The notes beneath the pieces were generated by a model. The model worked only from the letters and a program-made list of their open reading frames with translations. It was not told the DNA's origin and did not search any database. Source: Escherichia phage UE-S1. Taken from it: a stretch of 64,000 bases of DNA. The stretch lies in the sequence record ON568341.1, one strand, 5' to 3'. A program made the position numbers and the translations under genes. Shown piece by piece: positions 12,528-56,771 of this stretch (the stretch's first letter is position 1; every line of letters starts with the position of its first letter).

Positions 12528-12556
12528 TGGGACAAAACACTTTTTGGTGCTATAAT
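12528..12556 (+). promoter_or_regulatory. Sigma70-like promoter with phage-specific upstream box (GTGGGACAA-N14-TGCTATAAT)
   Basis: Member of a recurrent motif family (see findings); about 57 nt upstream of gp55-like start. Confidence 0.5.
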
Positions 12557-16627: not shown

Positions 16628-16639
16628 TTAAAAGATAAA

Positions 16640-16662
16640 GGGAGCCTTAGCTCCCTTTTTTT
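16640..16662 (+). terminator. Rho-independent terminator after gp46 (overlaps the stop of the convergent minus-strand gene)
   Basis: gggagc-ctta-gctccc followed by T7. Confidence 0.7.
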
Positions 16663-17227: not shown

Positions 17228-17257
17228 GTGAGACAACTTTAAAATTTGTGCTATAAT
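17228..17257 (+). promoter_or_regulatory. Promoter (GTGAGACAA-N15-TGCTATAAT) driving the ORF-free locus
   Basis: Same box and spacing as the primase promoter at 56742-56771. Confidence 0.5.
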
Positions 17258-25066: not shown

Positions 25067-26182
25067 ATGTCTAAATTAGAAAAGCTTCTAAAAGAATCAT
25101 CTCTTTCTGATGAGGCAAAACAGCTAATTCAGGAAGCATGGAATGAAGAAAAGAATACACTAGCCGCAGAGATGCGTGAAGAAATGAAAGGCCGTTATCA
25201 GCAAGATTTGGCTGAATTAACCGAAGGGTTGAACACTATGGTTACTCAAGTCATTGCTGAAGAAATGGGTGCTGTATATGAAGAGAAAAAACGTCTTGTT
25301 GAAGACCGTGTAACTCTACGTAAAACACTAAGCAATTTCTCTGCGTTTTCAAATTCTGTTTTGGCTGAAGAAGTTAAACAAATGCGTAAAGAGCGTAAGC
25401 ATCTGCATGAATGCATGGGTAAATTCGTTAATTTTTCTAACGGTATCCTAGCAGAAGAACTAAAAGAATTCCACACAGAAAAACGTCAACTGGTTGAAGC
25501 TCGTGTAAAATTACTTGCAGAAGGTTCACGTCAAATTGCTGAAGCTCGTAATAACTTCATCAAACGTACATCTGAAAGTGCTGCTAAATATATTGCAGAG
25601 ACAACACAGAAGAATCTATATGCGTTAAAACAAGATCTAGTGGAAGCGAAACAAAATATGTTTGGTCGTAAAATCTTTGAAGCATTTGCTCAAGAATTTA
25701 ATGTCAAACAATTCAATGAAAATTCATTGCTACGTTCACTAACTGAAACAATTAAATCTAAAGAAGATGAAATTGATCAAGTTAAGCAAGAACTACATGA
25801 AACTGTTAATGCGGTTAAAGCTGCTAAAACTAAACTACGTATTATGGAAGATGCACAAGCCCGTAATGCGATTATGTCAGAACTAGTAAAACCACTAACT
25901 GCACAGCAAAAACAAATTATGGAATCCCTTCTAGCAACTTCACCTACTGAAAAGCTTAAAGAAGATTTCAGTAAGTACCATAAGTCAGTACTTAACGGTA
26001 CTAAAGTAAATGAATCTGCTACCACTCGTCAAGCAGTTCAGTCTTCCGCTAAGAAAACTCTTGCAGAAGGTAAAGTGATCACTGGCAACCGTCAGGCTAT
26101 TGTTGAAAGCGAAGAAATGACCGCTGACGATATGGCATTCCTAAAAGAACTCGATGTTCTTTCGGGTATCAATAAAAAATAA
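25067..26182 (+). CDS. Prohead scaffold protein, gp22-like (371 aa, coiled-coil)
   Basis: Charged, helix-prone, Glu/Lys/Ala-rich; directly upstream of major capsid gene. Confidence 0.6.
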   Translation: MSKLEKLLKESSLSDEAKQLIQEAWNEEKNTLAAEMREEMKGRYQQDLAELTEGLNTMVTQVIAEEMGAVYEEKKRLVEDRVTLRKTLSNFSAFSNSVLAEEVKQMRKERKHLHECMGKFVNFSNGILAEELKEFHTEKRQLVEARVKLLAEGSRQIAEARNNFIKRTSESAAKYIAETTQKNLYALKQDLVEAKQNMFGRKIFEAFAQEFNVKQFNENSLLRSLTETIKSKEDEIDQVKQELHETVNAVKAAKTKLRIMEDAQARNAIMSELVKPLTAQQKQIMESLLATSPTEKLKEDFSKYHKSVLNGTKVNESATTRQAVQSSAKKTLAEGKVITGNRQAIVESEEMTADDMAFLKELDVLSGINKK

Positions 26183-26220
26183 ACATTTTAAAGCATTTTA
26201 ATAATCAATTTTTTCAGTTC

Positions 26221-26228
26221 TATAAATA
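26221..26228 (+). promoter_or_regulatory. Late promoter TATAAATA for the major capsid gene
   Basis: Exact TATAAATA 46 nt upstream of ATG 26274; RBS AAGGAG. Confidence 0.6.
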
Positions 26229-26273
26229 ATATCATACTGAAAAACGAATATAACATCTTTAAGGAGATATATA

Positions 26274-27449
26274 ATGTCACAACTACTAAATGAATCCAAA
26301 TGGGTAGCAGTAAAAGAGAAACTAGTTGAAGGTCTACAGGGTACTCGTAAGTCTGTAATGGAAACTGTTCTTGATAACCATCGTAAAGTTATGCTAACTG
26401 AATCCGCAACTTCTGGTGCAACTACCGCTGGTAATATCGCTACACTAAACAAAGTGATTCTACCAATTATGCGTCGTGTAATGCCAACTGTTATTGCTAA
26501 CGAAATTATCGGTGTTCAGCCTATGACTGGCCCAGTCGGTCAAATTCACACCCTACGTGTACAATATGCTGATAATGCACCTGGTGTTATCGCTGGTGAA
26601 GAAATGCTTTCTCCATACAAAATCGCTAAATCCTACTCTGGTGAACTAAATTCTGATAACAGCAATCCTCAAGCTGCTCCTACTAGCCAACTAGAAGGTA
26701 CTATGGGTCGTCGCGTTAACATCCGTATTCTACGTGAAACAGTTGAAGCGAAATCTCGTCGTCTATCTGCACGTTGGACTGTTGAATCTGCACAAGATGC
26801 TCAATCCCAACATGGTGTTGACGTTGAAGCAGAACTAATGGCTGCAATCGCTCAAGAAGTTACCGTAGAAATCGACCAAGAGCTACTAAGCCGTCTACGT
26901 GCACTACCTGGTGCTGCTGCTGTAACTTATGACCAATCTAAAGTTACTGGTGTTGCAACCTTCGTTGGTGATGAGCACGCTGCTCTAGCAACTCTAATTA
27001 ACCGTCAAGCAAACGAAGTTGCTCGTCGTACTAAGCGTGGTGCTGCAAACTGGGCTGTTGTTTCCCCAACTGCACTAACCATTCTACAATCTGCTACTAC
27101 TTCTAGCTTTGCACGTACCACTGAAGGTACTTTCGAAGCACCAACTAACGTTAAGTTTGTAGGTACTCTAAATAGCACTATGCGTATTTTTGTTGATACT
27201 TATGCAAGTGATTCAGAAGATATTCTAATTGGTTATAAAGGTAATGCAGAAACTGATGCTGGTGTGTTCTATTGCCCATACATCCCACTAATGGCATCCG
27301 GTACTGTAATGGACCCTAACACTGGTGAATTGGTCACAACCTTCCTCACTCGTTATGGTTACGTACAACTCACTGACTCAACCAGTAGCTTGGGTAATGC
27401 TGCGGATTACTACAGCAAAATCGCTATCAAAAACGTTACTTTCATGTAA
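26274..27449 (+). CDS. Major capsid protein, gp23-like (391 aa)
   Basis: Blocks GVQPMTGPVGQIHTLR, IEAKSRRL and GYKGNAETDAGVFYCPYIPL match T4 gp23 as recalled; strong RBS and late promoter. Confidence 0.9.
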   Translation: MSQLLNESKWVAVKEKLVEGLQGTRKSVMETVLDNHRKVMLTESATSGATTAGNIATLNKVILPIMRRVMPTVIANEIIGVQPMTGPVGQIHTLRVQYADNAPGVIAGEEMLSPYKIAKSYSGELNSDNSNPQAAPTSQLEGTMGRRVNIRILRETVEAKSRRLSARWTVESAQDAQSQHGVDVEAELMAAIAQEVTVEIDQELLSRLRALPGAAAVTYDQSKVTGVATFVGDEHAALATLINRQANEVARRTKRGAANWAVVSPTALTILQSATTSSFARTTEGTFEAPTNVKFVGTLNSTMRIFVDTYASDSEDILIGYKGNAETDAGVFYCPYIPLMASGTVMDPNTGELVTTFLTRYGYVQLTDSTSSLGNAADYYSKIAIKNVTFM

Positions 27450-27492
27450 TATTGATTTTTGTAGAATTTATAGAATAAAAAACTTTTATACT

Positions 27493-27518
27493 AGGGACTC
27501 TTCGGAGTCCCTTTTTTG
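27493..27518 (+). terminator. Rho-independent terminator after capsid gene
   Basis: agggactc-ttcg-gagtccct followed by T6. Confidence 0.75.
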
Positions 27519-27603
27519 GTTTTTATATAACTAAAAGATCTTGACAGTACTTAACAATTGTAGTATCATACGTGTAAATAAAGAAAAGAACTCGGAGAAA
27601 ATC

Positions 27604-29199
27604 GTGTTAGAAGAAATCAAGAAGTTTTTATCAGAGAAAAATGTTCGTGGTGTTAAATCTGCTCTGCAAGCAAAATCTGTATACATTGAATTCCTGCGAG
27701 AGATGTTTGGTGATATCGATCTTAATGAAATGATTTATATGGTATTGAATGATATTACTTCAGTGCCGAATGCTGAATGTGGTGACAAAGCTAAGTTTAT
27801 AAGTATTACCGAAGGATATTCTTACAAGTGCAATAAACCATTTCAAGGAAAAGGAAAATGCCTTATCTGTTGCTCCGCAGTTGCTAGGAAACGTAAAGAA
27901 ACTTACAAAGAAAAAACTGGTTATGATAACCCGGCACAGAATCCAGAAATTCAAAAGAAAATAGGGTATACCAATGAACAACGTTATGGCACTCGTATTG
28001 CTCAACAATCTGAACAAGTAAAGCAGAAATCAATAGAAACTAATATTAAAAAGTATGGTGTTGTTCATCCATCACAGTTGGAAAGTAATAAACAGCAACG
28101 TTTACAAACGGTACAAGAAAAGTATGGTATCAATAATGTATGGCAACTTAATAAAGGTCTTAGTGCACGTTATGAACAGTTTAAAACACGATTTGAACAG
28201 GATGGTAAATTTACTCTTTTAAGTGATGAATCCCATTATGATAATAGCAATGACGCAACTCATGCAATCATGCACTGGAAATGTAATGAATGTGGTAATG
28301 AGTTTGATAAAGTTGCTCTTTGCTTACGCTGCCCTAAGTGTGAACCATATTCATCCAGTACTGAAGAAGTAAATCTTTATAATTACATTACCTCTATCTA
28401 TAGTGGTGTGGTTATTCAAAACAGCCGCAACATCATCAAAGGTAATGAGATTGATATCTTCATCCCAGAATTGAAACTTGGTATTGAGTTCAATGGTGAG
28501 TATTGGCATCGTGATGAAGTTCGTGGTAAAAACTATCATCAATCCAAATACTTCAAAATGAAGGAAGCAGGATACAAACTTATCACTATCTATAGTAATG
28601 AATGGTCAAATAAAACTGAAATTGTTAAGAATCGTTTGAAAAGTTTGATTAGTGTGGATAGTAAAATCTATGCTCGTAAGTGTGAAGTTAGATTGGTTGC
28701 CCATGAAGAATGTGATAAATTTTTGTATGAACATCATATTCAAGGACCATGCCAATCATCAATCAAACTTGGACTTTACTATAATGATGATTTGGTTGCT
28801 TTGATGACATTTGGTGCACCACGATTTAACAAGCAGTATGAATATGAATTACTGCGTTATTGTTCTAAAGGAACAGTTGTTGGGGGTGCATCGAAACTGT
28901 TAAAACATTTTGAACGTATGTATCTTCCTAAATCTCTTCTTTCATACGCCGATATGAACTGGAGTACTGGTAATTTGTATGAAAAAATTGGTTTTACTTT
29001 AGAAGAAGTAACTCAACCTGGTTATTTTTACTATGATAGAAAAAACGAAGTTGTTTATTCTCGCCATCAATGCCAAAAACAAAAACTTATTAAAAAATAT
29101 AATTTTGATAGTTCTATGACAGAGAAGGAAATGACAAAAGAATTAGGATACTTTAGAATCTATGATTGTGGTAACTTAGTTTATAAAAAGATTTACTAA
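27604..29199 (+). CDS. Multidomain homing-endonuclease-like protein, paralog 1 (GTG start; Cys clusters, tandem KYGV repeats, PD-(D/E)XK-like core, conserved C-terminal domain)
   Basis: Start set at GTG 27604 (RBS GGAG) by alignment with paralog at 62121 (VLEEIKKFL vs MIIDELKKFL); repeats …QEKYGINNVWQL…; core IDIFIPELKLGIEFNGEYWH; C-terminal block YELLRYCSKGTVVGGASKLL shared with paralog. Confidence 0.5.
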   Translation: MLEEIKKFLSEKNVRGVKSALQAKSVYIEFLREMFGDIDLNEMIYMVLNDITSVPNAECGDKAKFISITEGYSYKCNKPFQGKGKCLICCSAVARKRKETYKEKTGYDNPAQNPEIQKKIGYTNEQRYGTRIAQQSEQVKQKSIETNIKKYGVVHPSQLESNKQQRLQTVQEKYGINNVWQLNKGLSARYEQFKTRFEQDGKFTLLSDESHYDNSNDATHAIMHWKCNECGNEFDKVALCLRCPKCEPYSSSTEEVNLYNYITSIYSGVVIQNSRNIIKGNEIDIFIPELKLGIEFNGEYWHRDEVRGKNYHQSKYFKMKEAGYKLITIYSNEWSNKTEIVKNRLKSLISVDSKIYARKCEVRLVAHEECDKFLYEHHIQGPCQSSIKLGLYYNDDLVALMTFGAPRFNKQYEYELLRYCSKGTVVGGASKLLKHFERMYLPKSLLSYADMNWSTGNLYEKIGFTLEEVTQPGYFYYDRKNEVVYSRHQCQKQKLIKKYNFDSSMTEKEMTKELGYFRIYDCGNLVYKKIY

Positions 29200-29216
29200 A
29201 ATACGGGAGAATACGG

Positions 29217-29567
29217 ATGTTAACTGTATACAAATTTAACAAAGAAGAGTACTTAAAGAGTCAGTACTCAAATATAGAAATAAATGTTCCTTATGGTACG
29301 TTAGTTGGATATGATGAAGCCACTGAAACATTGTATTATAATGATGATAGATTGGATTATAGTTTAGATTCTTTCATAGAAGATATACTTAATACACAAA
29401 CTGAAGATATGTTGTATGAAGAATACATCGATCATTATAGAGAACGTATGTCGGTGCTGCATTCTGATGCTCCTGTACTAAACATAGCACAAGAACCATC
29501 GGAATTTCAGCCACATAATCCTTTTCAACGTTTAATTGATATTGGTTTAAAATTCACTATTAGTTGA
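29217..29567 (+). CDS. Hypothetical protein (116 aa)
   Basis: ORF with RBS GGGAGAA. Confidence 0.4.
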   Translation: MLTVYKFNKEEYLKSQYSNIEINVPYGTLVGYDEATETLYYNDDRLDYSLDSFIEDILNTQTEDMLYEEYIDHYRERMSVLHSDAPVLNIAQEPSEFQPHNPFQRLIDIGLKFTIS

Positions 29568-29606
29568 TAGATAAATATCTCCATATTAATGATGGAGATT
29601 GAATCT

Positions 29607-29915
29607 ATGTCACAGATATGTTATGTTATAATAAACTCTGCATGGCCTGACTATGTTAAGATTGGTTTCACTTCTAAATCTGAAATGACAGAGCGTTTGA
29701 GAACGTATCAGACAGCTACCCCGTTTCGTGATTTTGAAGTTTATCATGAAGTTCACTTTGAAGACGCACGTTTAGCTGAAAAAGAGATACATAAAAGGCT
29801 TAAACAAATGAATGCAACTAGACAACCAAACACGGAGTGGTTTAAAATGTCTAAAAAAATAGCAGCAAACATCATTGATTCTGTGTGGGATGATATGGAT
29901 AACGACTTGCTATAG
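29607..29915 (+). CDS. GIY-YIG-superfamily / T5orf172-like domain protein
   Basis: Pattern CYVIINSAWPDYVKIGFTSK…RLRTYQTATPFRDFEVYH…EWF typical of T5orf172-type domains; GGAG RBS before ATG 29607 (ORF track start 29589). Confidence 0.45.
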   Translation: MSQICYVIINSAWPDYVKIGFTSKSEMTERLRTYQTATPFRDFEVYHEVHFEDARLAEKEIHKRLKQMNATRQPNTEWFKMSKKIAANIIDSVWDDMDNDLL

Positions 29916-29955
29916 GAATAAATATAGTATATATTAATCATAAAGGGATTTATAC

Positions 29956-31566
29956 ATGAGCATAAGTTTTAATAACCCATTGGATACAATGACCAGTACT
30001 GGTGCTAATGGATCTTTAGAACTAATAGTGCTTGGTGGTACACCAACTAACCCAAGACCTATTCGTTTTAATTCGTCATCAGTTATTATACCAGTAAAAA
30101 CACTACCTACTGGTGAGCAAGGTGCAATGGTTTTTGATAGAAATGAATTAGTTTTGAAGTATCATAACGGTACAAGTTGGATTGCAGTGTACGATAATGA
30201 TACTATTTTGGAGCCAATTAGGATTTCACTAGATGAAGTAAACAGAAAACTAAATTTAAAGGTAGAAAGTGTAACATATAGTAGCAGTTCTGTTCCAAGT
30301 GCAAGTATAAGTGGAACTAATTTAAATATTGTATTCCCTACTGTGTCTACGGGTGGTTCTGGCCCTACTGGACTTTATACTTCACTAAAACCTGGGGCTA
30401 TTACACAATATTCATTGACTTCTGGTCAATCGGTTGCTAGTATACGCGAACAAATGTCAGGACAATCGAATGGACAAAGTGGACGAAACGGTTCACAAGG
30501 TGCTCCGTGGAAAACGTCAGACGGTTGGTGTTTTGCTGATGGTATGTGGTGGCAATGGGAGGGGGAAAATGGTACAATTACCAAACAAGTACCAAACCTT
30601 AACCAAAACGCGTATTTAAAAGGTATATCCACATCGGGTGTAACTAAAACTGATAGTGTTATTGGTAGTAGCGGTAATATTAGCGGCACAGTATTAAGTG
30701 TTGCCCAGTTACCATCACACTCATTTAGTTTTAGTGGGACCACTAGTGCTGCTGGTCGTCACGGTCATAGTCAGGCACTAAAAGGTAATGACCGTAGTGG
30801 TCTAAATGCAATAACATCTAGTAGAGATAATGGCATCCCAACTGTAATCAGTAATATTAATGAAGCACCCGACCATGTTCACTCATTTAGTGGAAACACA
30901 AACACACTTGGTGGAAATCAGCCACATTATCATGGCATTAGTAACATTGATGTGGAACACTTAAACGTCGCCTACCTATATAACATTGCTGAATCTAACG
31001 TCGCATTGAGCGAAAAAGTTGCAAATAAACGTTATGTACTAAAAACTGGTGATACAATGACTGGTTCATTGACTATTGCAAACAGTGCATCCATACAGTC
31101 AAATGATACATCATTAGTTCTTTATTTCCGCAATGCAAGTGGTGGTGAACGTGCAGCGGTATATCATAACTCATCAAACAATACCTTGAGATTACGTTCC
31201 GGTGGTGCTGAAGTAGCTGTAAACTCTTCTGGTAACTTATCTGCTCCATCTTTAACTGTTTCTACTAACTCAGCTACTGTTGGTGGCAAAAATATTGTTC
31301 GTTCTATTAACGGAAATGCAGCAGATGGTAATGGTAATGTTACATTACAAATTAGTGCTAATAATGTACAAAGTGTACGTTTGAGTGCAAGAATTGAAAC
31401 TGGTAAAATGTCTGACAAGTCGTGGACATATACACCGGAGGGTTCCTTTATGGATGGAATATATCTTTCTGTAAATGGTAGCTCTGGTACACACGTCGAA
31501 CGCCTAAGTTATCGTTTTATTCAAGTACAAATTAATGGCAACTGGGAAACTGTACGTCCACAATAA
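29956..31566 (+). CDS. Tail-fibre-like protein with His-rich (HxH) segment (536 aa)
   Basis: Fibre hallmark KTGDTMTGSLTI; HxH boxes (GRHGHSQ, PDHVHSF, PHYHGI); Ser/Thr/Gly/Asn-rich. Confidence 0.6.
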   Translation: MSISFNNPLDTMTSTGANGSLELIVLGGTPTNPRPIRFNSSSVIIPVKTLPTGEQGAMVFDRNELVLKYHNGTSWIAVYDNDTILEPIRISLDEVNRKLNLKVESVTYSSSSVPSASISGTNLNIVFPTVSTGGSGPTGLYTSLKPGAITQYSLTSGQSVASIREQMSGQSNGQSGRNGSQGAPWKTSDGWCFADGMWWQWEGENGTITKQVPNLNQNAYLKGISTSGVTKTDSVIGSSGNISGTVLSVAQLPSHSFSFSGTTSAAGRHGHSQALKGNDRSGLNAITSSRDNGIPTVISNINEAPDHVHSFSGNTNTLGGNQPHYHGISNIDVEHLNVAYLYNIAESNVALSEKVANKRYVLKTGDTMTGSLTIANSASIQSNDTSLVLYFRNASGGERAAVYHNSSNNTLRLRSGGAEVAVNSSGNLSAPSLTVSTNSATVGGKNIVRSINGNAADGNGNVTLQISANNVQSVRLSARIETGKMSDKSWTYTPEGSFMDGIYLSVNGSSGTHVERLSYRFIQVQINGNWETVRPQ

Positions 31567-31576
31567 GGAGTGTGTG

Positions 31577-32086
31577 ATGCAATTAACAAATTTTAAGATG
31601 TATGACAAAGAAGGTGGTAATTCTAATTCATTATATATGATTTCTGATGAAGGTATGGATTGGTATGATTCTCGTGGATTGTTTGACATTAATAAAGCAA
31701 AATTTATGTATGATAATAATGGTCTGATTGTTTCAGCATCATACAACATTCACGAATTAGTACCTTTGGGTTTTAGCGTTGCTGAAATAGATTATGATGG
31801 GGATATCAATAAACTATATGGTATGGTTTATGATGGTAACACTATTAGTGAATATGTTGAAACTAAAGAAGAAAAAAATGAACGCTTAAAAAATGAATTG
31901 GCAAATTTAAAATATATGGCAATCCAAGAAATCAGCCACTTAAAAACCGCTATGGATCTTGGTTTAGCAACGGATGAAGAATCAGTATTGTTTGGGAAAT
32001 TAAAAGAATATGTAACACAATTATCTTCAATTAAACCAGCAGATATGATTAAGAAAACATTTTCATTCCCAGTTAAACCTGAATAA
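31577..32086 (+). CDS. Putative tail fibre assembly chaperone (169 aa)
   Basis: Immediately downstream of fibre gene with GGAG RBS; function by position only. Confidence 0.3.
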   Translation: MQLTNFKMYDKEGGNSNSLYMISDEGMDWYDSRGLFDINKAKFMYDNNGLIVSASYNIHELVPLGFSVAEIDYDGDINKLYGMVYDGNTISEYVETKEEKNERLKNELANLKYMAIQEISHLKTAMDLGLATDEESVLFGKLKEYVTQLSSIKPADMIKKTFSFPVKPE

Positions 32087-32123
32087 AAAATTGGGACAGT
32101 GGATATAACTGTGATACACTTAA

Positions 32124-32158
32124 GTCATCTCACTAATGGTAGTGAGATGACATTTTTT
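32124..32158 (+). terminator. Rho-independent terminator after the fibre/chaperone pair
   Basis: 11-bp stem gtcatctcact / agtgagatgac followed by T6. Confidence 0.7.
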
Positions 32159-32183
32159 CAAAACACATGGAGATATACAAAAA

Positions 32184-32486
32184 ATGGCTAAATCTAAAAA
32201 AGAAGTTAAAGTAGAAATTCGTGATCTAAACGATGAACAACGTAAACGTCTCGGTGATGCACTTAATAACATTGTTGTACAACTTACTTTCATTGATGAT
32301 ACCAAAGCATCCTTGTCAGATTTTGTTTCTAGTATTTCAGATGAACTAGGTATCAATGCATCTGATATCAAGCAAGCTGCACAGCGTATGTACAAAGGTG
32401 ATTACTTTGATAAACAAAGCAAACTAGATAACATCGAAACTATCCTAAGTGTTACTAATAATCTACCACAAGCAGATGATTACTAA
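32184..32486 (+). CDS. Hypothetical protein (100 aa)
   Basis: ORF with RBS GGAGATA upstream; followed by hairpin 32510-32536. Confidence 0.4.
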   Translation: MAKSKKEVKVEIRDLNDEQRKRLGDALNNIVVQLTFIDDTKASLSDFVSSISDELGINASDIKQAAQRMYKGDYFDKQSKLDNIETILSVTNNLPQADDY

Positions 32487-32509
32487 TTTCTAATAAAATA
32501 TATTCAATG

Positions 32510-32536
32510 GCCTCCAGTGACGGAGGCTTTCTTTTT
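32510..32536 (+). promoter_or_regulatory. Hairpin plus U-run immediately upstream of the DNA polymerase RBS (terminator and/or translational operator)
   Basis: gcctcc-agtgac-ggaggc followed by tttcttttt, ending about 30 nt before ATG 32566. Confidence 0.4.
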
Positions 32537-32565
32537 AACTTAATAAACGTAAGGGAATATAAACG

Positions 32566-35500
32566 ATGTATATCGATGCTTATATGGAACGTAAACGTAC
32601 TGGTGATATTCTTCATGTTGTGGAACGTAAAAATGGTAAACGCATTCTACGTGAATTGGACCCAGTATATGAATATTATGTTGAATCACCACAAGGAACA
32701 CATAAAACTGTTTATGGTACAATGGCTAAACATTTTGAGTTTCAAACCCAAGCTCAAATGAATAAAAGTGTAGAGAAACACAAAAGTGAAGGTCTACGTA
32801 TTTTTGAAAGTGATTGTAATATCATATTCAAAACCTTAGCTAAAGAATATATGGGGAAAGGTTCACCAGATTTGAATATCGTATTCTTCGATATTGAGAC
32901 TGACTTCCATAAGAAATTTGGTTATGCTCCACCATCGGACCCATTTAACCGCGTAACTGCTATTTCTTTATATCAATCATGGACTGGAAAAGATTATGTA
33001 CTTACTTTACCACCAGTTGATATGGAAATTTATGAAGCACAAGATATTGTTCGTAAACTAAATGAAGAAACAAATGATCCTAACAGTACTGTGATTCTAT
33101 ATACAGACGAAAAGGAAATGTTTATGGAATTCTTTAGTTTAATTGATGACTCTGATGTTATTTCAGGATGGAATAGTGAATTTTTTGATATTCCATATAT
33201 GATCAATCGAACTAAAAAAATCTTCAATGAAGCAACGACTGCTCGTTGGTGTTTATGGAATAAAAAACCAAATTCACGTGAAGCCGATAACTTTGGAAAA
33301 ACTGTACAAACTTATGATCTGGTAGGACGTGTTCATCTAGATTACTTGGCTTTGTATAAAAAACATGCTGGGCAAGTTGAACAATCTTATAAACTAGATT
33401 ATATTGCTGAAAAAGTAACAAAAGAAAATAAAGTATCTTATGAAGGTTCATTGGATAAACTTTATAGAGAAGATTACATTACTTTCTTGCGTTATTCTAA
33501 ACAGGATAGTATTCTTCTTAAAAAGATTGATGCTAAATGTGACTATATCAACCTACACAATCGTCTTGCACATAAAGAGTGTGTACTTATTAGTACAACA
33601 ATGGGTTCAGTAGCACTAATTGACACTGCTATTATTAACTTAGCACATAGCCGTGGTGAAGTTGTTTTTAACAAAGCACCTAAAGACGATGTTGAGTTTG
33701 ATCCAGAAATGGAATATTATAGTGATGATGGTGAAGATGAAGAAGAGAAAATCAGTGCAAAAGCCGCAGGTGCATGGGTACAAGATCCAGTTTTGGGACT
33801 TGTAAGTGACCTTGGATGTACTGACTTTAACTCTCTTTATCCTACAGTTCTACGTACATTGGGAATGAGCACAGAATGTATTCTTGGTCAATTACGTCAA
33901 GATTATACGGATGCGTATCTTGCAGCTAAAATTCAGGAACAGAAAAATAAATCCAAATCTAGATCATTTGAACCAGACTGGACTGCCGCATGGCATGGTT
34001 TGTTTGCTGCTGTTGAGTTCACTATGGTTCATGAAAAGTCAGAAGAAACATTGATTGTAGATTTAGAAGATGGGAGTTCTTTTAAAGCAACTGGAAAAGA
34101 ACTATATGATATTATTTTTGCAGAAGATAGTACTATTGTTCTAAGTGCAAATGGAACCTTGTTTGATAAATCAAAATCTGGTGTAATTCCAGATATTCTT
34201 ACACAATGGTATTCTGAACGTAAAGCTCAACAAAAAATGGTTATTGATTACAAACATATGTGTACTGATGGTTGGGAGTTTAATGGTCATGAAAAAGTTG
34301 AACCACTATTGACAAACTATACCCCAGGAACTATGTTTAGAACTAATATCCATGATAACGATCCTGTATACTTACTTCGCAAAGAAATTGGCAAAGGACA
34401 ATGGGATGAAGTTGCTAAGTTGATTGTAGAAAATGGATTAGTACTTAAAGATGGTCGCATTTACTGTCCTAAAGAAGAAAAAGATTACTTCAAACAACGT
34501 AGTGCTTTCTGGAAACAGAACCAACAGATTCGTAAAATTCTTCTAAACAGTCTATATGGTGCACTACTGAACAAAGGTTCTCGTTTCTTTGATAAGCGTT
34601 TGGGTCAATCTGTCACATTAACTGGTCGTTCGATGACTAAGCATATGGCAAGTCGTATCAATGAAATTACAACTGGTGTATATATTCATCACGGCGGTTC
34701 TGTGATCTATGGGGACACTGACTCTGTGTACTTTAGTGTAACGCATTATCTAAAAGAACAAGGCATTCCATATAATTTATCTAAAGAAGAAATTGTTGAT
34801 ATGTATATTAAAATTGGTGAAGAAGTTGGTGAATCTTTTCCATCATTTATGCATCAAATGTTCAACACTGGTATTGAAAAAGGTAAGATTGTTGGGGCAG
34901 ACCTTGAGATGGTTGGTTCCCGTGGATTATTCTTGAAGAAAAAACGTTATGCAATTTTGAAGTACTGGGAAGATGGATTTCGCAAAGATATTGATGGTAA
35001 ACCTGGTGAAATCAAAGCTATGGGTCTTGAAATTAAACGTTCAGATACACCAAAATACATCCAGAACTTCCTAGAAGAGACTCTAATTGCACTACTGGTA
35101 GGTGAGAATGAACAACAGTTAAAACAGCGTGTACGTGCTTTTAAGGACGTATTTAAAGATATGCCTGTGCATGAAAAAGGCTCACCAAAAACTGTAAAAA
35201 ACTACACAAATTTAGAGGCCGAATATCAACTAACAGGTAAGTGTAAGGTTGGGCACGTTCTTGCTGGTATTCAATGGAACCGCTTACGTGAAGTTTATGA
35301 TGATAAAACTGTCCCAGAAGTAACTGATGGAACAAAAGTAATTGTTTGTAACTTAAAAGATAATCCAATGGGGATTAAAGCAGTTGGTTATCCAATTGAC
35401 TGTGTTGAGTATCTACCTGAATGGTTCTTAGAACTACCATTTGACACTGAAAAAATGGAAGAGATTGTTCTAACTAAAAAATTAGAGAATATTTTTGGTA

Positions 35501-35571
35501 TTTTAGATATGGATATTGGTATTCATGAAAAAAGTACTGCATCAGTAAACAATGGATTCTTCACTTGGTAA
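32566..35571 (+). CDS. DNA polymerase, family B, gp43-like (1001 aa)
   Basis: Exo I motif FFDIETDF; Pol motif C YGDTDSVYF; Pol motif A-like LYPTVLRTLGMS; RBS AAGGGA. Confidence 0.95.
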   Translation: MYIDAYMERKRTGDILHVVERKNGKRILRELDPVYEYYVESPQGTHKTVYGTMAKHFEFQTQAQMNKSVEKHKSEGLRIFESDCNIIFKTLAKEYMGKGSPDLNIVFFDIETDFHKKFGYAPPSDPFNRVTAISLYQSWTGKDYVLTLPPVDMEIYEAQDIVRKLNEETNDPNSTVILYTDEKEMFMEFFSLIDDSDVISGWNSEFFDIPYMINRTKKIFNEATTARWCLWNKKPNSREADNFGKTVQTYDLVGRVHLDYLALYKKHAGQVEQSYKLDYIAEKVTKENKVSYEGSLDKLYREDYITFLRYSKQDSILLKKIDAKCDYINLHNRLAHKECVLISTTMGSVALIDTAIINLAHSRGEVVFNKAPKDDVEFDPEMEYYSDDGEDEEEKISAKAAGAWVQDPVLGLVSDLGCTDFNSLYPTVLRTLGMSTECILGQLRQDYTDAYLAAKIQEQKNKSKSRSFEPDWTAAWHGLFAAVEFTMVHEKSEETLIVDLEDGSSFKATGKELYDIIFAEDSTIVLSANGTLFDKSKSGVIPDILTQWYSERKAQQKMVIDYKHMCTDGWEFNGHEKVEPLLTNYTPGTMFRTNIHDNDPVYLLRKEIGKGQWDEVAKLIVENGLVLKDGRIYCPKEEKDYFKQRSAFWKQNQQIRKILLNSLYGALLNKGSRFFDKRLGQSVTLTGRSMTKHMASRINEITTGVYIHHGGSVIYGDTDSVYFSVTHYLKEQGIPYNLSKEEIVDMYIKIGEEVGESFPSFMHQMFNTGIEKGKIVGADLEMVGSRGLFLKKKRYAILKYWEDGFRKDIDGKPGEIKAMGLEIKRSDTPKYIQNFLEETLIALLVGENEQQLKQRVRAFKDVFKDMPVHEKGSPKTVKNYTNLEAEYQLTGKCKVGHVLAGIQWNRLREVYDDKTVPEVTDGTKVIVCNLKDNPMGIKAVGYPIDCVEYLPEWFLELPFDTEKMEEIVLTKKLENIFGILDMDIGIHEKSTASVNNGFFTW

Positions 35572-35726
35572 GGAGTTAGATAATATGGTTATTGTAAATG
35601 AAATCGAACTAAATTATGATGAAGTAAACGACACTTTCACCAATGCAGTATTGAACATTACTGAAGAAAGTGTAAATGATGCATGGGAAAAATATGTAGA
35701 ATGGGCTGCATTACAAGGTAAAAATA

Positions 35727-36023
35727 ATGAGTAATATATATAAGCGTATTGGAGAAGTTCTGGAAGGTAATGGTATCATTAATTCAGTTCTAGCATACGA
35801 TAATAATGAAGAGATGGTTCTAATTGGTGCTGGTTTTACCCGCACTGGTTCGGTGGAAGTTGATGGCGAAATTGCTGATATCTACACTATTGTGAAAAAG
35901 CGTAATGTTGTTTTTGTGGATGATGTGTATACATTAAAAGACTTGGCAAATTTACGTAATAAAATTGGCATGAGTTCCACTATTGATAAACCTTATCTTA
36001 AACGTTGGAACACAAAATTCTGA
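35727..36023 (+). CDS. Hypothetical protein (98 aa)
   Basis: ORF downstream of polymerase. Confidence 0.35.
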   Translation: MSNIYKRIGEVLEGNGIINSVLAYDNNEEMVLIGAGFTRTGSVEVDGEIADIYTIVKKRNVVFVDDVYTLKDLANLRNKIGMSSTIDKPYLKRWNTKF

Positions 36024-36031
36024 TAAAAAAA

Positions 36032-36062
36032 ATGAGACAAGCATCATTTTTTGAGATATAAT
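36032..36062 (+). promoter_or_regulatory. Promoter (ATGAGACAA-N16-TATAAT)
   Basis: Motif family member, about 64 nt upstream of ATG 36126. Confidence 0.45.
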
Positions 36063-36125
36063 GGTGCTTGTAGTAATCTGACATAAACACATTTTTGATT
36101 AACAAATAGAACGGAGAATTATATA

Positions 36126-36857
36126 ATGGATCTACGCAACGTATTACGTGACCTTGTAAACACAACCAGTGGTATTGACTTCTCTTGTATTGCTGTAAGT
36201 AGTGAAGACCGTGGTGAAGGGCAACGTGTATATCTAGAAGCGTACACAGATGACCGAACTCTAGTGATGCGAGCATATACTAAAGAGGATGTTCCTGAAG
36301 TTCAGGGTCGCTTTGGGTTAGGAAATCTAGGTCTTCTTCAGGGTCTAATGTCTCTAAAAACATACAGTACTGAAGGAACAACAATCACATCAAATGTCAA
36401 AGACGGTTCTGTAAAAAGTCTAGCATTTAAATCTGAAGATGCAAGCACTACATTTATGGTACAAGCTGAAAAACTTATTCCAGTACAACCACGTTTTCAT
36501 GAACAACCATATGACGTACAGGTTATTCCTAGTGCAGCAAAAGTTCAAGAACTAAAGAGTTTTTCTGGTGTATTTAAATCATTCAGTTCTCTCGTAACTC
36601 CGTATACTGATGGTGACACACTATACTTTCACGTTGGTGAGAAAAACAAAAGCAACCACGTTGGTTCACTAGCTTTTTCTAAAACTGATGGAGAATTGGG
36701 ACTTGGATTTGGATATAATATTGATCGAGTACTTCAAGCACTATCTCGTGTCTCTAATGCTGAATCTGTATCACTTGGTATCACAAAAACTGGTATGTTA
36801 AATGTCACACTAGATACTGGAATTGCTGTATACAAATTTTATGTAACTGGTTGCTAA
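36126..36857 (+). CDS. Hypothetical replication-module protein; possible sliding clamp (gp45 position), 243 aa
   Basis: Own promoter and hairpin; location after polymerase; no diagnostic motif, so function is positional guess. Confidence 0.25.
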   Translation: MDLRNVLRDLVNTTSGIDFSCIAVSSEDRGEGQRVYLEAYTDDRTLVMRAYTKEDVPEVQGRFGLGNLGLLQGLMSLKTYSTEGTTITSNVKDGSVKSLAFKSEDASTTFMVQAEKLIPVQPRFHEQPYDVQVIPSAAKVQELKSFSGVFKSFSSLVTPYTDGDTLYFHVGEKNKSNHVGSLAFSKTDGELGLGFGYNIDRVLQALSRVSNAESVSLGITKTGMLNVTLDTGIAVYKFYVTGC

Positions 36858-36922
36858 TATAAATAACGGGGAACAAGTTGTTCCCCGAATTAGTTTGATT
36901 TAAAAGTAAAGGAATACAAAAA

Positions 36923-37129
36923 ATGCCATTATATACATATCGTTGTGAAAAAGAAGAATGTAAACATAGTATGGAAAAAATTGTTAAAATTGCTAATCGT
37001 GATGAACCCCATGACTGTCCTAAATGTAATGGTAAAAAGACTATGAAGTTAGAAGTATTCACACCAGGTGATAAAGGTGCTAATCTTTATTTCCGTGGAA
37101 AATGGTTTGCAAATACTGGAGGATACTGA
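36923..37129 (+). CDS. FmdB-family zinc-ribbon protein (68 aa)
   Basis: MPLYTYRCEKEEC…HDCPKCNG arrangement typical of FmdB-type zinc ribbons. Confidence 0.55.
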   Translation: MPLYTYRCEKEECKHSMEKIVKIANRDEPHDCPKCNGKKTMKLEVFTPGDKGANLYFRGKWFANTGGY

Positions 37130-37130
37130 T

Positions 37131-37430
37131 ATGAAAATTAAAATGATTAATGATTACGTTCTTGTTCGTCAAATTGAAGCACAGAATAAAAGTTCTGGTG
37201 GTATTATTCTAGGGAATGTTGAGCCACCATGCATTGGTATGGTAATTTCCGTTGGTCCAGGTAAAGTTCTACCGAACGGACAACTAGCAGAGCATGATAT
37301 TAAAGAAGGTGATATGGTTGTATTTGGACGTTCATCTTTGAACACTCCCCTAACTGAAGATCTTGGTGGTGGAGAAGACACATACTATGTAATGAAAATC
37401 GAAGAGATTTTTGGTAAGAAAAATGGCTAA
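37131..37430 (+). CDS. GroES-like co-chaperonin (T4 gp31 functional analog), 99 aa
   Basis: Cpn10 pattern MKIKMINDYVLVRQ…GGIILGN…GMVISVGPGKVLPNGQ…IKEGDMVVFGR; GGAGGA RBS before ATG 37131 (ORF track start 37068 is upstream extension). Confidence 0.7.
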   Translation: MKIKMINDYVLVRQIEAQNKSSGGIILGNVEPPCIGMVISVGPGKVLPNGQLAEHDIKEGDMVVFGRSSLNTPLTEDLGGGEDTYYVMKIEEIFGKKNG

Positions 37431-38148
37431 AAATAAATTTATACCATTTTGGATGATCCCTGCTCACTGGGGACTTTCTGGTAAGGCAAAAGAAATAGCC
37501 AAAGCATATTACTACAATGATGATTATGAAGCTGATATGAAGATTGCAGAATTGACATATCTAACTCCATATGAAGTTGAAGTAGCACAATTGGATATCA
37601 AAAAGAAATATGGTGTAATAGAAGAGTTAGAATATCTAATTGCTATACTAGATGTAGAATTGAAATATTCCAAAATTACTCGTGAACAGTATGATGTTAA
37701 AGTTCTTGATGCAAAATTGAGTACTGGTGCAATCACTGAAAAAGAATATGATATGGAAATCATCGAGCTAATGCCAGATGGTGATGAAAAAAGACTAAAG
37801 GCTATTGAATTTGCATATCGTTATGATGAAATCACACAAAGTGAATATTCTAAGGAAATATATACACTTCGAAAAGAGCCTTGGATTGATTTGAATGTGG
37901 TTCTTGACCCTGAAACAAATGAAGTTGAGTTTGTGTTTGATTATAATGAATATTTCTGGAAAAAACTGAAAGCGGAAGGTCATCCAGGTAATGACGAAGA
38001 AGAAATTATCGATAATTTTGTTAGAGACTTAGGTCGCAAACTTGCTACAGATGATTTCAGTGATGATTATGACGCAAAGTTGGTGAGTGTGAACGAAGGA
38101 TTAGACAAGCTACCTGGTTTACCTGAAGGATTTCGTTCATATAGATAA
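37423..38148 (+). CDS. Hypothetical protein (241 aa)
   Basis: ATG 37423 overlapping GroES-like stop; followed by bidirectional terminator. Confidence 0.4.
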   Translation: MAKNKFIPFWMIPAHWGLSGKAKEIAKAYYYNDDYEADMKIAELTYLTPYEVEVAQLDIKKKYGVIEELEYLIAILDVELKYSKITREQYDVKVLDAKLSTGAITEKEYDMEIIELMPDGDEKRLKAIEFAYRYDEITQSEYSKEIYTLRKEPWIDLNVVLDPETNEVEFVFDYNEYFWKKLKAEGHPGNDEEEIIDNFVRDLGRKLATDDFSDDYDAKLVSVNEGLDKLPGLPEGFRSYR

Positions 38149-38158
38149 AATATAAAAA

Positions 38159-38186
38159 GGAGAGCGTGTGCTCTCCTTTTCTTTTG
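38159..38186. terminator. Bidirectional terminator between convergent genes
   Basis: ggagagc-gtgt-gctctcc with A-run upstream and T-run downstream. Confidence 0.7.
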
Positions 38187-38193
38187 TAATATG

Positions 38194-38883
38194 TTAAACC
38201 AATGCTGGAAGATATTGGAATAGTTTAATACCGAAATCCCCTGCTGCATCAGCGGCCTGTGAACGTAGATAAACTTCAGTGACCCCATCTTTAGCAAGTA
38301 GTGGAACACCAGTTAGATCATCAATTAGTAGGCGACCTTCTTCATATTCAGTACTTGGAACGCCTTGTGGTGATTTTAGATCTTTGTTAAAAACACTAGC
38401 ACGTTCAACTAGGAATGTGATAACAGACGCATCATCAAGACTAACTTTACCAGCACTAATAACACCATCTGGTGCGTTGGTGAAACCAGTAACTGGAAAC
38501 ACTTCACTACCATTTCCTGCAATGTTGGATGTTGCAATAACAACTGCACGTTGTTGTACAACATCTACGATGCGTTTTACGTTAGTTTGTGCCGCATAGG
38601 ATGCATTGTAATCTGATTCTAGTGATTCTAGAACGAAAGCAGAACCATCAACACGCTTGATACCTTTATCATTTAGGTATGCTAGAATTTCTTCTGGGAT
38701 ATCAGTGTTTAGAAAACGTTGTAAACCTACATAAGAGGAAACTGCTCCTGTTACAAGAACGTTCACGTCACCAAGTTTACTAATAGCAATAGATGCTAGG
38801 GCGTTAGTACCACAAAAGTAACCTAGAATACGCTCAAATGAATACCCATTGATACGTTCAAAAGAAGTATTAGTATTTGACAT
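38194..38883 (-). CDS. Late structural protein, paralog A (229 aa); tail-tube-fold candidate
   Basis: Paralogous to adjacent gene (shared LQQRAVLVTTS / VQQRAVVIATS, VFNKQ/VFNKD); beta-rich composition; ATAAATA-like boxes upstream of the pair on minus strand. Confidence 0.4.
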   Translation of the reverse strand: MSNTNTSFERINGYSFERILGYFCGTNALASIAISKLGDVNVLVTGAVSSYVGLQRFLNTDIPEEILAYLNDKGIKRVDGSAFVLESLESDYNASYAAQTNVKRIVDVVQQRAVVIATSNIAGNGSEVFPVTGFTNAPDGVISAGKVSLDDASVITFLVERASVFNKDLKSPQGVPSTEYEEGRLLIDDLTGVPLLAKDGVTEVYLRSQAADAAGDFGIKLFQYLPALV

Positions 38884-38898
38884 AATATTACCTCTCTA

Positions 38899-39498
38899 TT
38901 ATAGTTGAACTGGAAGAGCAGCACGTACTTTAATAGCTACAGCAGTAGATGCACCTGCATCACCAACACCATCAGTTCCTTGACTTACGAAAGTTTTAGT
39001 ACGAAAAACTTTAGCTTGTGCAATAGATTTAGCTAGGTCAACAGTTGGATCAACTGGAGCAGGACATGCAGAACCTGGACGAACTTCTTGTTTATTAAAT
39101 ACGTCTTGACGTTCACAGATGAAAGTCAATGCAACAGAGTTAGCACCACCTTTAACATCAGTACCGCTAGTACCAAATGCAACTACGTTTGGGTTAGCAT
39201 TTTTAAAATCTTCAGGAATAACAACTTCTGCATCAAGAGCAAGTAGTGAAGTCGTTACAAGAACAGCACGTTGCTGTAGTAGTTGAGTAACCATGAATAG
39301 GTTATATTGTGCATTGCTTAGTGCAGTTTGATATGCATCAGCTTGAGCATCAGAACCATCGGACACAACTTTAGTAGTACCGATTTCAACATCAGTTGGT
39401 AGGTCGATTACGATGGTTACAAAACCGTTGTTGCCACCCCACCATTCACGTGCAACACCAGACATACCATAGTTACGGTTAAAAGAATTAAGACTCAT
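38899..39498 (-). CDS. Late structural protein, paralog B (199 aa); tail-tube-fold candidate
   Basis: See paralog A; strong RBS (AAGGAGAT on minus strand). Confidence 0.4.
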   Translation of the reverse strand: MSLNSFNRNYGMSGVAREWWGGNNGFVTIVIDLPTDVEIGTTKVVSDGSDAQADAYQTALSNAQYNLFMVTQLLQQRAVLVTTSLLALDAEVVIPEDFKNANPNVVAFGTSGTDVKGGANSVALTFICERQDVFNKQEVRPGSACPAPVDPTVDLAKSIAQAKVFRTKTFVSQGTDGVGDAGASTAVAIKVRAALPVQL

Positions 39499-39621
39499 GA
39501 AAATCTCCTTGTCGAATTTTGTGCAGGTTCATCCTGCTTAAAGTTATTTATCAAAAAATATTCCTAGCATTTAAATTTACTGGAATAATTAATGAATTTC
39601 TATGATATTATTTATCAAAAA

Positions 39622-45897
<6,276 letters not shown>

Positions 45898-45943: not shown

Positions 45944-45972
45944 TGGGACAGTATAAAAACCTGTGCTATAAT
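45944..45972 (+). promoter_or_regulatory. Promoter (TGGGACAGT…TGTGCTATAAT) for gp32
   Basis: Extended -10 at 45962-45972; long A-rich leader to ATG 46061. Confidence 0.5.
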
Positions 45973-55767: not shown

Positions 55768-56745
55768 ATGGCTCATCACGGCGTGTTTATGTACCCTTAT
55801 AATCAGGAAGTATCATTGGGCAATTTTAATATGCCATTTAGTAATGAAAAACTAACTATCTATCGAGGGGCAAATAATAATTTATCTTTTACTGTTCACA
55901 ACGCTGATGGAAAATATACTTTATTGAAAGATAATGAATATCTTACATTTATGATTTTTGATGCACGAAATAATACTAAACTATTTGATGTTGTATTGGA
56001 AAAGCAAGAACCAAGTTGGTTATCAGAAAGTGGTCAAGCTCGTCAAACATTGGGAAATAAAAAGAAAGTATACTATGGATGTATTGTTCCAGCAGGAGTT
56101 ATTCAAGATACCAGTCCTGGTTCTAAATATAGATGGAGCATTACTAAAGTAACTATGGATGGTTCACTTATAGAACCAACACAATATCTATACACTGGAA
56201 TGAACTTTGAGGCATCAGCGGAGCTAATAATTTCAGACCAAGCAGCCCCAGTATTTGTTCCTAGTACTGAAATATCTACAGACAAAAATTCAGCCTGGAC
56301 ATCAATAAAGCGTTTATATAATGAACCAATTGGTAATGGTATGATAGGTGAGTATGATATACTCGCATCAACTCCACTTCCAGCACAAATGCAGTATGGG
56401 TTGGTTGATGGGCTAAGTAGCATTGCAATCTATTTTGATAAATTCATTGGAAGAATACAGTTACAAGGATGTTTGTGTAATAATGTACCTAATGATAATG
56501 AAAATTATAAATGGTTTATAATCAAATTAGATGGAAAGGATTATATTGAAAATGGGATTGATATTGATGGATTTCCAAAAGAACTTGATGGTATTCAAGC
56601 ATTTAATTTCAAAGGAAATTATATGTGGTTGCGAATCGTAGTAGCAATTCATCCTAAAAATGTTCCAGTACCATACGACTATGCTGCTGTGCGAAAAGTG
56701 TATGATCCTTTATTAACTGTACCTAAAATTTTGATTCGCAGGTGA
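55768..56745 (+). CDS. Hypothetical protein (about 326 aa)
   Basis: RBS GGAAGGA before ATG 55768 (ORF track start 55702). Confidence 0.4.
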   Translation: MAHHGVFMYPYNQEVSLGNFNMPFSNEKLTIYRGANNNLSFTVHNADGKYTLLKDNEYLTFMIFDARNNTKLFDVVLEKQEPSWLSESGQARQTLGNKKKVYYGCIVPAGVIQDTSPGSKYRWSITKVTMDGSLIEPTQYLYTGMNFEASAELIISDQAAPVFVPSTEISTDKNSAWTSIKRLYNEPIGNGMIGEYDILASTPLPAQMQYGLVDGLSSIAIYFDKFIGRIQLQGCLCNNVPNDNENYKWFIIKLDGKDYIENGIDIDGFPKELDGIQAFNFKGNYMWLRIVVAIHPKNVPVPYDYAAVRKVYDPLLTVPKILIRR

Positions 56746-56771
56746 GACAAAATTAGAAGGTGTGCTATAAT
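56742..56771 (+). promoter_or_regulatory. Promoter (GTGAGACAA-N15-TGTGCTATAAT) for primase/helicase operon
   Basis: Identical box and spacing to 17228-17257. Confidence 0.55.

Follow-up and report, generated by a model that had tools for sequence, protein, structure and literature searches.

A predicted leaky intrinsic terminator ahead of the DNA polymerase gene of the RaK2/121Q-type phage UE-S1

Internal terminators can act as attenuators in operons that include a replication enzyme of low abundance. In the rpsU-dnaG-rpoD operon of Escherichia coli an internal terminator, T1, lies between rpsU and dnaG, and its partial termination has been demonstrated. The DNA polymerase of phage T4, gp43, is regulated through its own leader, the operator consisting of a hairpin upstream of the start codon and of sequence that overlaps the RBS (Uzan and Miller, PMC3014915). 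The operator hairpin-loop measures 18 nt in T4 and 16 nt in RB69, with the top 10 nt identical, and carries the loop motif UAAC (UAAA in RB49), of which the 3' AC or AA bases matter for gp43 binding; autoregulation is absent from the polymerases of some T4 relatives (PMC3014915). In the T4 genome (NC_000866) we find two hairpins in the spacer between regA and 43. The first, AAGGGGC-UUCG-GCCCCUU followed by AUUU, stands 4 nt past the regA stop codon (4447-4472, minus strand) and folds with −12.9 kcal/mol. The second is the operator, AGCCU-AAUAACUC-GGGCU, with a 5-bp stem, an 8-nt loop and −6.3 kcal/mol. About 24 nt containing a TATAAT separate it from the GC hairpin, and from its end to the SD there are 8 nt.

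Among the RaK2-like phages, the tables published for CBB list a terminator, Torf262, at 187,863-187,892 (TGCCCCAGGATTGGGGCGTTTTGTTTTAAG, −11.6 kcal/mol; Table S8 of PMC5259590). The same authors describe a divergent RpoD-like promoter class that is found mainly before DNA-synthesis genes, including the polymerase block, and their tables give no promoter for orf263, the polymerase gene (PMC5259590). Promoters and terminators are not discussed in the RaK2 paper, and we found no transcriptome of Asteriusvirus or RaK2-like phages in the literature searched.

Here we analyse the equivalent locus in a stretch of 64,000 nt from Escherichia phage UE-S1 (record ON568341.1), called the window, to which all positions refer unless another record is named. 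The region is about 91% identical to the Escherichia jumbo myophages of the 121Q/PBECO4/G17 group (Asteriusvirus) and shares 65-85% identity with other RaK2-like phages, which infect Klebsiella, Salmonella, Erwinia, Pectobacterium, Cronobacter, Serratia, Yersinia and Xanthomonas; the window belongs to a RaK2/121Q-type jumbo phage. Phages of the RaK2/121Q kind have a use in phage-therapy work. In all relatives compared, a tail fibre gene is followed by those for the tail-fibre assembly protein, the 100-aa ORF and the DNA polymerase, in this order. Two hairpins are considered, hp1 and hp2 (Table 1), of which hp2 immediately precedes the polymerase leader. A sequence-only reading of the window had proposed that this hairpin could be a translational operator of the T4 kind or, as a fallback, that it could simply terminate the preceding gene, with the polymerase being expressed by read-through.

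Table 1. Features of the polymerase locus and related promoter-like sites in the window
Feature	Position	Strand	Basis or remark
Phage-type promoter-like site TGGGAC, 17-nt spacer, (TGA)TACACT	32092-32120	+	Motif family; equivalent of CBB Porf_262
Hairpin hp1 (12-bp stem 32124-32151) and T6 (32153-32158)	32124-32158	+	Fold; orthologues annotated as terminators
100-aa ORF	32184-32486	+	ORF list; directly 5' of the polymerase gene in RaK2-like phages
Hairpin hp2, GGCCUCC-AGUGAC-GGAGGCU	32509-32528	+	Fold, terminator scan, conservation, annotations of orthologues
U-tract of hp2, TTTCTTTTT, 8/9 T	32528-32536	+	Sequence; T-rich tail in every relative
Unstructured leader with SD-like UAAGGGA (32550-32556)	32537-32565	+	Fold and motif scans; without promoter motif or second hairpin
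Family-B (T4 gp43-like) DNA polymerase gene, 1001 aa	32566-35571	+	Pfam, phrog_262
Other sites of the promoter-like family	12528-12556, 17229-17257, 39622-39650, 45944-45972, 56743-56771	+	Motif search

Anatomy and conservation of hp2

The stem of hp2 has 7 bp (32509-32515 with 32522-32528), of which five are G-C, one is A-U and one, at the end, is G.U, and it closes a loop of 6 nt (32516-32521). It is followed directly by UUCUUUUU, which runs to 32536, and the U-tract counted from the last stem position, UUUCUUUUU, has U at eight of nine positions. Folded alone (32506-32537), the hairpin reaches −12.7 kcal/mol with z = −3.34, a stability that was not equalled in any of 200 dinucleotide shuffles. 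It is also one of 15 terminator-like sites returned by a consensus scan of 26000-40000, a scan that gave 6.4 ± 2.3 sites in shuffled sequence. A search of 31900-32900 with Rfam 15 at a permissive threshold gave sub-threshold chance matches only, and the best of these, rseX (30.8 bits where the family requires 50, E = 0.12), is driven by the terminator hairpin.

Between 32484 and 32568 the sequence consists of the TAA of the 100-aa ORF, a 22-nt AT-rich spacer, the hp2 stem-loop, TTCTTTTT (to 32536), AACTTAATAAACG, the SD-like TAAGGGA, 9 nt and the ATG of the polymerase gene. The stem begins 23 nt past the TAA, in intergenic DNA and on the sense strand, and leaves 37 nt to the polymerase ATG. 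Between the end of the T-tract and this ATG there are 29 nt, in agreement with the sequence-only reading, which had described a GC-rich hairpin with a U-tract about 30 nt from the start codon. The same reading had placed the hairpin immediately 5' of the RBS, a description that has to be corrected, as 22 nt separate the stem from the SD (32529-32550, T-tract included). The ATG at 32507, which would open an 84-aa ORF across hp2, was rejected as a gene start, since it is ATA in G17.

The hairpin is an ordinary element and already known, its orthologues being annotated as Rho-independent terminators in four public sources. In the G17 record (MK327931, 162036-162055, 20 nt) the orthologue is a 'putative transcriptional terminator' predicted by ARNOLD with a value of −12.50, the Munch and Muenster records carry unnamed terminator features at this place, and the fourth source is the CBB list cited above. 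These predicted terminators share with the window their position and the GC stem with a T-tract, and the energies lie between −11.6 and −12.7 kcal/mol. The G17 hairpin differs from that of the window by two substitutions, the window having a G.U closing pair instead of A-U and one change in the loop. By itself, hp2 is of little consequence, being probably an ordinary intrinsic terminator, with orthologues already annotated in relatives.

The layout is found elsewhere too. One rule set applied to the whole window gave about 11 intergenic sense-strand sites with a hairpin and a T-run, and a hairpin with a T-tract and the next gene on the same strand 22-38 nt further on is also present at 32124, 47132 and 49540; it recurs before other genes and is therefore not specific to the polymerase. 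Terminator-like hairpins of a bidirectional kind, with A-runs and T-runs on both sides, are present at 16637-16658 and 38154-38181, where convergent gene blocks meet. In Sinorhizobium phage Phosso a homologue of the small ORF is followed by a hairpin and a T-run, and another gene stands between it and the polymerase gene; the hairpin goes with the 3' end of the small ORF and not with the start of the polymerase gene.

The spacers that separate the 100-aa ORF from the polymerase gene were extracted from 17 relatives (Asterius-, Alcyoneus-, Mimas- and Eneladusvirus and unclassified phages), and a GC-cored hairpin with a T-rich tail was present at this position in every one of them. It starts 2-24 nt past the stop codon of the small ORF, and its stem leaves 30-44 nt to the polymerase ATG. 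Asterius- and Alcyoneusvirus, Munch and Hallingskeid have the stem core GCCUCC/GGAGGC, and vB_Ec-M-J and EJP2 have GCCUCC/GGGGGC, which contains a U.G intermediate. The core reads GCCCCA/UGGGGC in CBB, XbC2 and Serratia BF and GCCUCA/UGAGGC in the Yersinia phages. Pairs were counted in the 14 sequences of equal length without gaps, with the loops trimmed to 4 nt because MAFFT had put the 5' arms of Mimas and Eneladus one column out of register. Pair 4 is U-A in eight sequences, U-G in two and C-G in four, pair 6 is C-G (9) or A-U (4), and the closing pair is A-U or U-A. In this alignment 90% of the cells are paired, compared with 78.5 ± 2.1% in column shuffles (0/500 as high), and at most 61% when the 3' partners are slid along. 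The covariation score is 0.321 against 0.129 in shuffles (0/500). All these values corroborate rather than prove the structure, as the independent events are few, the genomes are related and the structure was derived from the same sequences.

The loops of the relatives measure 4-8 nt and vary in sequence (AGUGAC, AAUGAC, UAGUAU, UUUUCU, GGAU, UUAAUU, AUGGA and others), and it is the structure of hp2 that is conserved rather than its sequence. Eight stem positions are nevertheless invariant among the 14 sequences (core GCC.C/G.GGC), which exceeds what structure alone would demand, although the base of the hp1 stem is similarly conserved. In several relatives the stem is lengthened by A-U pairs between an upstream A-run and the T-tract, an extension common to many intrinsic terminators. 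The hairpin combines the features of an intrinsic terminator, namely a stable GC stem-loop, an adjoining U-tract, a position after a stop codon and selection on pairing. Outside the group, a terminator-like hairpin occurs within 150 nt upstream in 2 of 74 distant T4-like polymerase loci (IMG/VR, about 40% identity), and hp2 is therefore a trait of the RaK2-like clade and not of gp43-type genes in general; this rarity neither supports nor refutes an operator role.

Flanking genes, polymerase leader and predicted upstream promoter

The polymerase ORF contains the Pfam domains DNA_pol_B_exo1 and DNA_pol_B, matches phrog_262 at 3e-217 and is annotated as DNA polymerase in the relatives, whose N-terminal identity (MYID.YMERKR) confirms the start codon. 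The 100-aa ORF has a match to phrog_12534 (1e-44) and a weak one to phrog_639, 'transcriptional regulator' (7e-7); it has no Pfam family and no significant sequence match in the PDB, and its single-sequence AlphaFold model is poor (pLDDT 57). The protein is acidic-tailed and helical. Homologues are present in 72 phage records, always of the RaK2-like group with the addition of Phosso, the most distant carrier, in which the gene lies two genes upstream of the polymerase and is annotated 'DNA binding protein'. By tblastn the small ORF was not detected in PA5oct, a phage for which an RNA-seq paper exists. The fENko-Kae01 record reports detection of both the 100-aa protein and the polymerase by LC-MS/MS.

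From the T-tract to the start region (32529-32575) the leader is unstructured (−2.6 kcal/mol, z = +0.56), and the fold of the whole 94-nt leader is unremarkable (z = −1.57). A TTAAGT box between the T-tract and the SD of most distant relatives was considered as a promoter or operator and dropped because it is not clearly enriched in the intergenic DNA of the window (4 against 1.5 expected) and stands at a variable distance from the SD. Where the distant relatives have TTAAGT, the window has ACTTAA (32538-32543), and a palindrome, ACTTAAGT, lies between the −10 of the upstream promoter and hp1 (32118-32125).

The motif scans gave no sigma-70-like match on the + strand of 32463-32566 and no phage-type promoter motif in 32463-32565, and the earlier observation that the 80 nt before the polymerase gene contain no recognisable promoter is upheld on both counts. 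Two weak sigma-70-like sites inside the small ORF, at 32407-32434 and 32434-32462 (9/12 matches), were set aside, as they are inseparable from coding constraint and lie upstream of hp2. Conservation of the peptide ETIL fixes the −35-like GAAAC in this ORF, Turkey5 has lost the −10, and in fHe-Yen9-03 a promoter is auto-annotated at the homologous place. Sigma-70-like sites are no commoner than expected by chance (50 found, 59 expected).

The nearest promoter-like site of phage type is found upstream of the small ORF. With a motif modelled on the 'divergent RpoD-like' promoters of the CBB and GAP32 papers (TGAAACG ... TATAAT) we found a promoter-like family, TG(G/A)GACA-N12-TGTGCTATAAT, with six sites in the window, all on the + strand and mostly in front of + strand gene blocks. 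The site at 32092-32120, a weaker copy of the family, falls in the spacer that separates the tail-fibre assembly gene from the 100-aa ORF and is the counterpart of Porf_262 of CBB (Table S6 of PMC5259590). All 14 relatives compared have such a site at the equivalent position. The site at 32092-32120 is probably the promoter of a unit made up of the 100-aa ORF and the polymerase gene.

This putative promoter is set against hp1, which folds with −18.6 to −18.8 kcal/mol (z about −6) and is kept, with stem changes, in 14 relatives; orthologues of hp1 carry terminator annotations in G17, Munch, Muenster and CBB ('Torf261'). It is the predicted terminator of the tail-fibre and tail-fibre-assembly genes. 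In the window hp1 starts 3 nt past the −10, and in the 14 relatives the gap is 0-4 nt; in the CBB tables Porf_262 ends at 187,500 and Torf261 starts at 187,504, an adjacency that is not commented on (PMC5259590). A start about 7 nt past the −10 would fall in the 5' arm of hp1, although this is a prediction only. In an RNA starting at 32127 the remnant of hp1 folds with −10.6 kcal/mol and leaves 4 unpaired nt before the U-tract, while in one starting at 32129 these values are −8.0 kcal/mol and 6 nt; for the truncated-start equivalent in CBB the energy falls from −17.1 to −8.9 kcal/mol. A start inside the arm would remove the base of the stem, and thus tail-fibre transcripts would be stopped and the promoter's own transcripts spared. 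The arrangement of the promoter against hp1 is a more unusual feature of the locus than hp2.

Proposed read-through of hp2 and alternative explanations

Anatomy, covariation, existing annotations and the lack of a promoter motif downstream favour the fallback of the sequence-only reading, a terminator of the preceding gene with read-through. We consider it probable that hp2 is an intrinsic (Rho-independent) terminator of the 100-aa ORF, leaky and placed inside the transcription unit of the polymerase. Such a unit would run from the promoter at 32092-32120 through the 100-aa ORF and hp2 to the polymerase gene. The GC stem would form on the nascent RNA and the U-tract would then let the host RNA polymerase release, leaving a short transcript with a 3' hairpin, and the polymerase gene would be carried only by the transcripts that read through. 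In this role hp2 would be a leaky attenuator, which would keep the mRNA of the polymerase scarcer than that of the small gene before it.

At the level of motifs, the layout is that of an intra-operon attenuator, with a promoter upstream of the small ORF and none between hp2 and the gene. As the interval from hp2 to its gene contains no promoter, the polymerase most likely owes its expression to read-through. From the sequence we infer termination at hp2, its partial nature and the dependence of the polymerase on read-through. Gene-timing models of RaK2/121Q-like phages should accordingly expect polymerase mRNA by way of terminator read-through, the polymerase gene of the RaK2-like group being apparently without its own promoter and behind two conserved hairpins.

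If hp2 were efficient, the polymerase would need a promoter that the motif scans miss, and we regard as unlikely the explanation that hp2 ends the small-ORF transcript completely and that an unrecognised phage promoter overlaps the hairpin or lies in the 37 nt after it, in which case the polymerase mRNA would lack the hairpin or carry a truncated one. A precedent is given by hp1, where 0-4 nt separate the −10 of a predicted promoter from the stem, and in some relatives, the XbC2 group among them, a T4-late-like (T)ATAAATA stands 2-4 nt before the hp2 orthologue (TATAAATAAAAGCC in RaK2 and Muenster, AATAAATAAAGCC in XbC2, AATAAATAATGCC in Serratia BF), ATAAATA being the consensus of the 'third promoter' of CBB. 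The window and its Asteriusvirus relatives, however, have no ATAAATA before hp2. What the window has is a −10-like TATATT at 32499-32504, 4 nt before the start of the stem, but this has no TG extension and no −35 resembling TGGGAC or TTGACA. Against a promoter here also stand the lack of a motif common to all relatives upstream of hp2, the CBB tables, which give none for orf263, and the 29 nt from the T-tract to the ATG, too short for a promoter and an SD leader. In the relatives with (T)ATAAATA, a start from this element, if active, would fall in the 5' arm of hp2, as proposed for hp1.

It is also conceivable, if speculative and in our view not likely, that hp1, the promoter embedded in it and hp2 form one conserved control cassette for the polymerase, in which the promoter fires inside hp1, its transcripts, lacking the base of the stem, escape a terminator that halts late tail-fibre transcription, and the polymerase is dosed by read-through of hp2 alone, possibly modulated by the 100-aa protein, by coupled translation or by the polymerase.

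A further explanation, which we find quite improbable, makes hp2 mainly an element of RNA stability or processing that protects the 3' end of the small-ORF mRNA or uncouples the decay of the cistrons, with termination as a secondary effect. It agrees with the hairpin being kept beside the small ORF even in Phosso, and RNA that ends at an intrinsic terminator always carries a protective hairpin. The T-rich tail present in every relative speaks against it, being needed for termination and not for 3' protection. A role in stability is compatible with the terminator reading and not really exclusive of it.

Comparison with T4 and with the rpsU-dnaG operon

The likeness between hp2 and the T4/RB69 operator is one of place, as hp2 also lies upstream of a gp43-type gene and would be part of its mRNA leader if read-through occurs. 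The T4 operator has a weak stem, a conserved loop and no U-tract and abuts the RBS, and the window hairpin is the opposite on each point. It precedes a family-B polymerase gene but is not contiguous with the RBS and has no conserved 8-nt loop, and the operator reading therefore fails on both features that can be tested here. That the polymerase binds hp2 in its own leader and represses translation, as in T4 and RB69, is very improbable: the polymerase is of the gp43 type, the loop of hp2 ends in AC, like the UAAC of T4, and the stem core is invariant in 14 relatives, but hp2 is a strong GC stem, twice as stable as that of the T4 operator, it carries a U-tract, stands 22 nt from the SD (30-44 nt from stem to ATG in relatives) where the T4 operator abuts or overlaps the RBS, and has a loop conserved neither in sequence nor in length, T4 has an hp2-like hairpin past regA that is distinct from the real operator and precedes it, no second, operator-like hairpin lies between the T-tract and the SD, and some T4-related polymerases are without autoregulation (PMC3014915). 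The T4-like operator of the sequence-only reading is thus not borne out, and position alone gives no ground for transferring the T4 gp43 autoregulation paradigm to RaK2-like polymerases.

The closer T4 counterpart of hp2 is the GC hairpin after regA, which resembles it in stability, in its position after a stop codon and in its U tail. In T4 this hairpin is followed by the TATAAT and the operator hairpin, whereas nothing comparable follows in the window, and between regA and the 100-aa ORF no relation can be detected.

The arrangement that we propose for the polymerase gene most resembles that of T1 between rpsU and dnaG. This is a functional analogy with no sequence relationship, and partial termination, demonstrated for T1, is in the window deduced from the sequence. 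In both cases a terminator, leaky in the one and predicted to be so in the other, stands between a small gene and a gene for a replication enzyme that has no promoter of its own, and the enzyme would be expressed by read-through.
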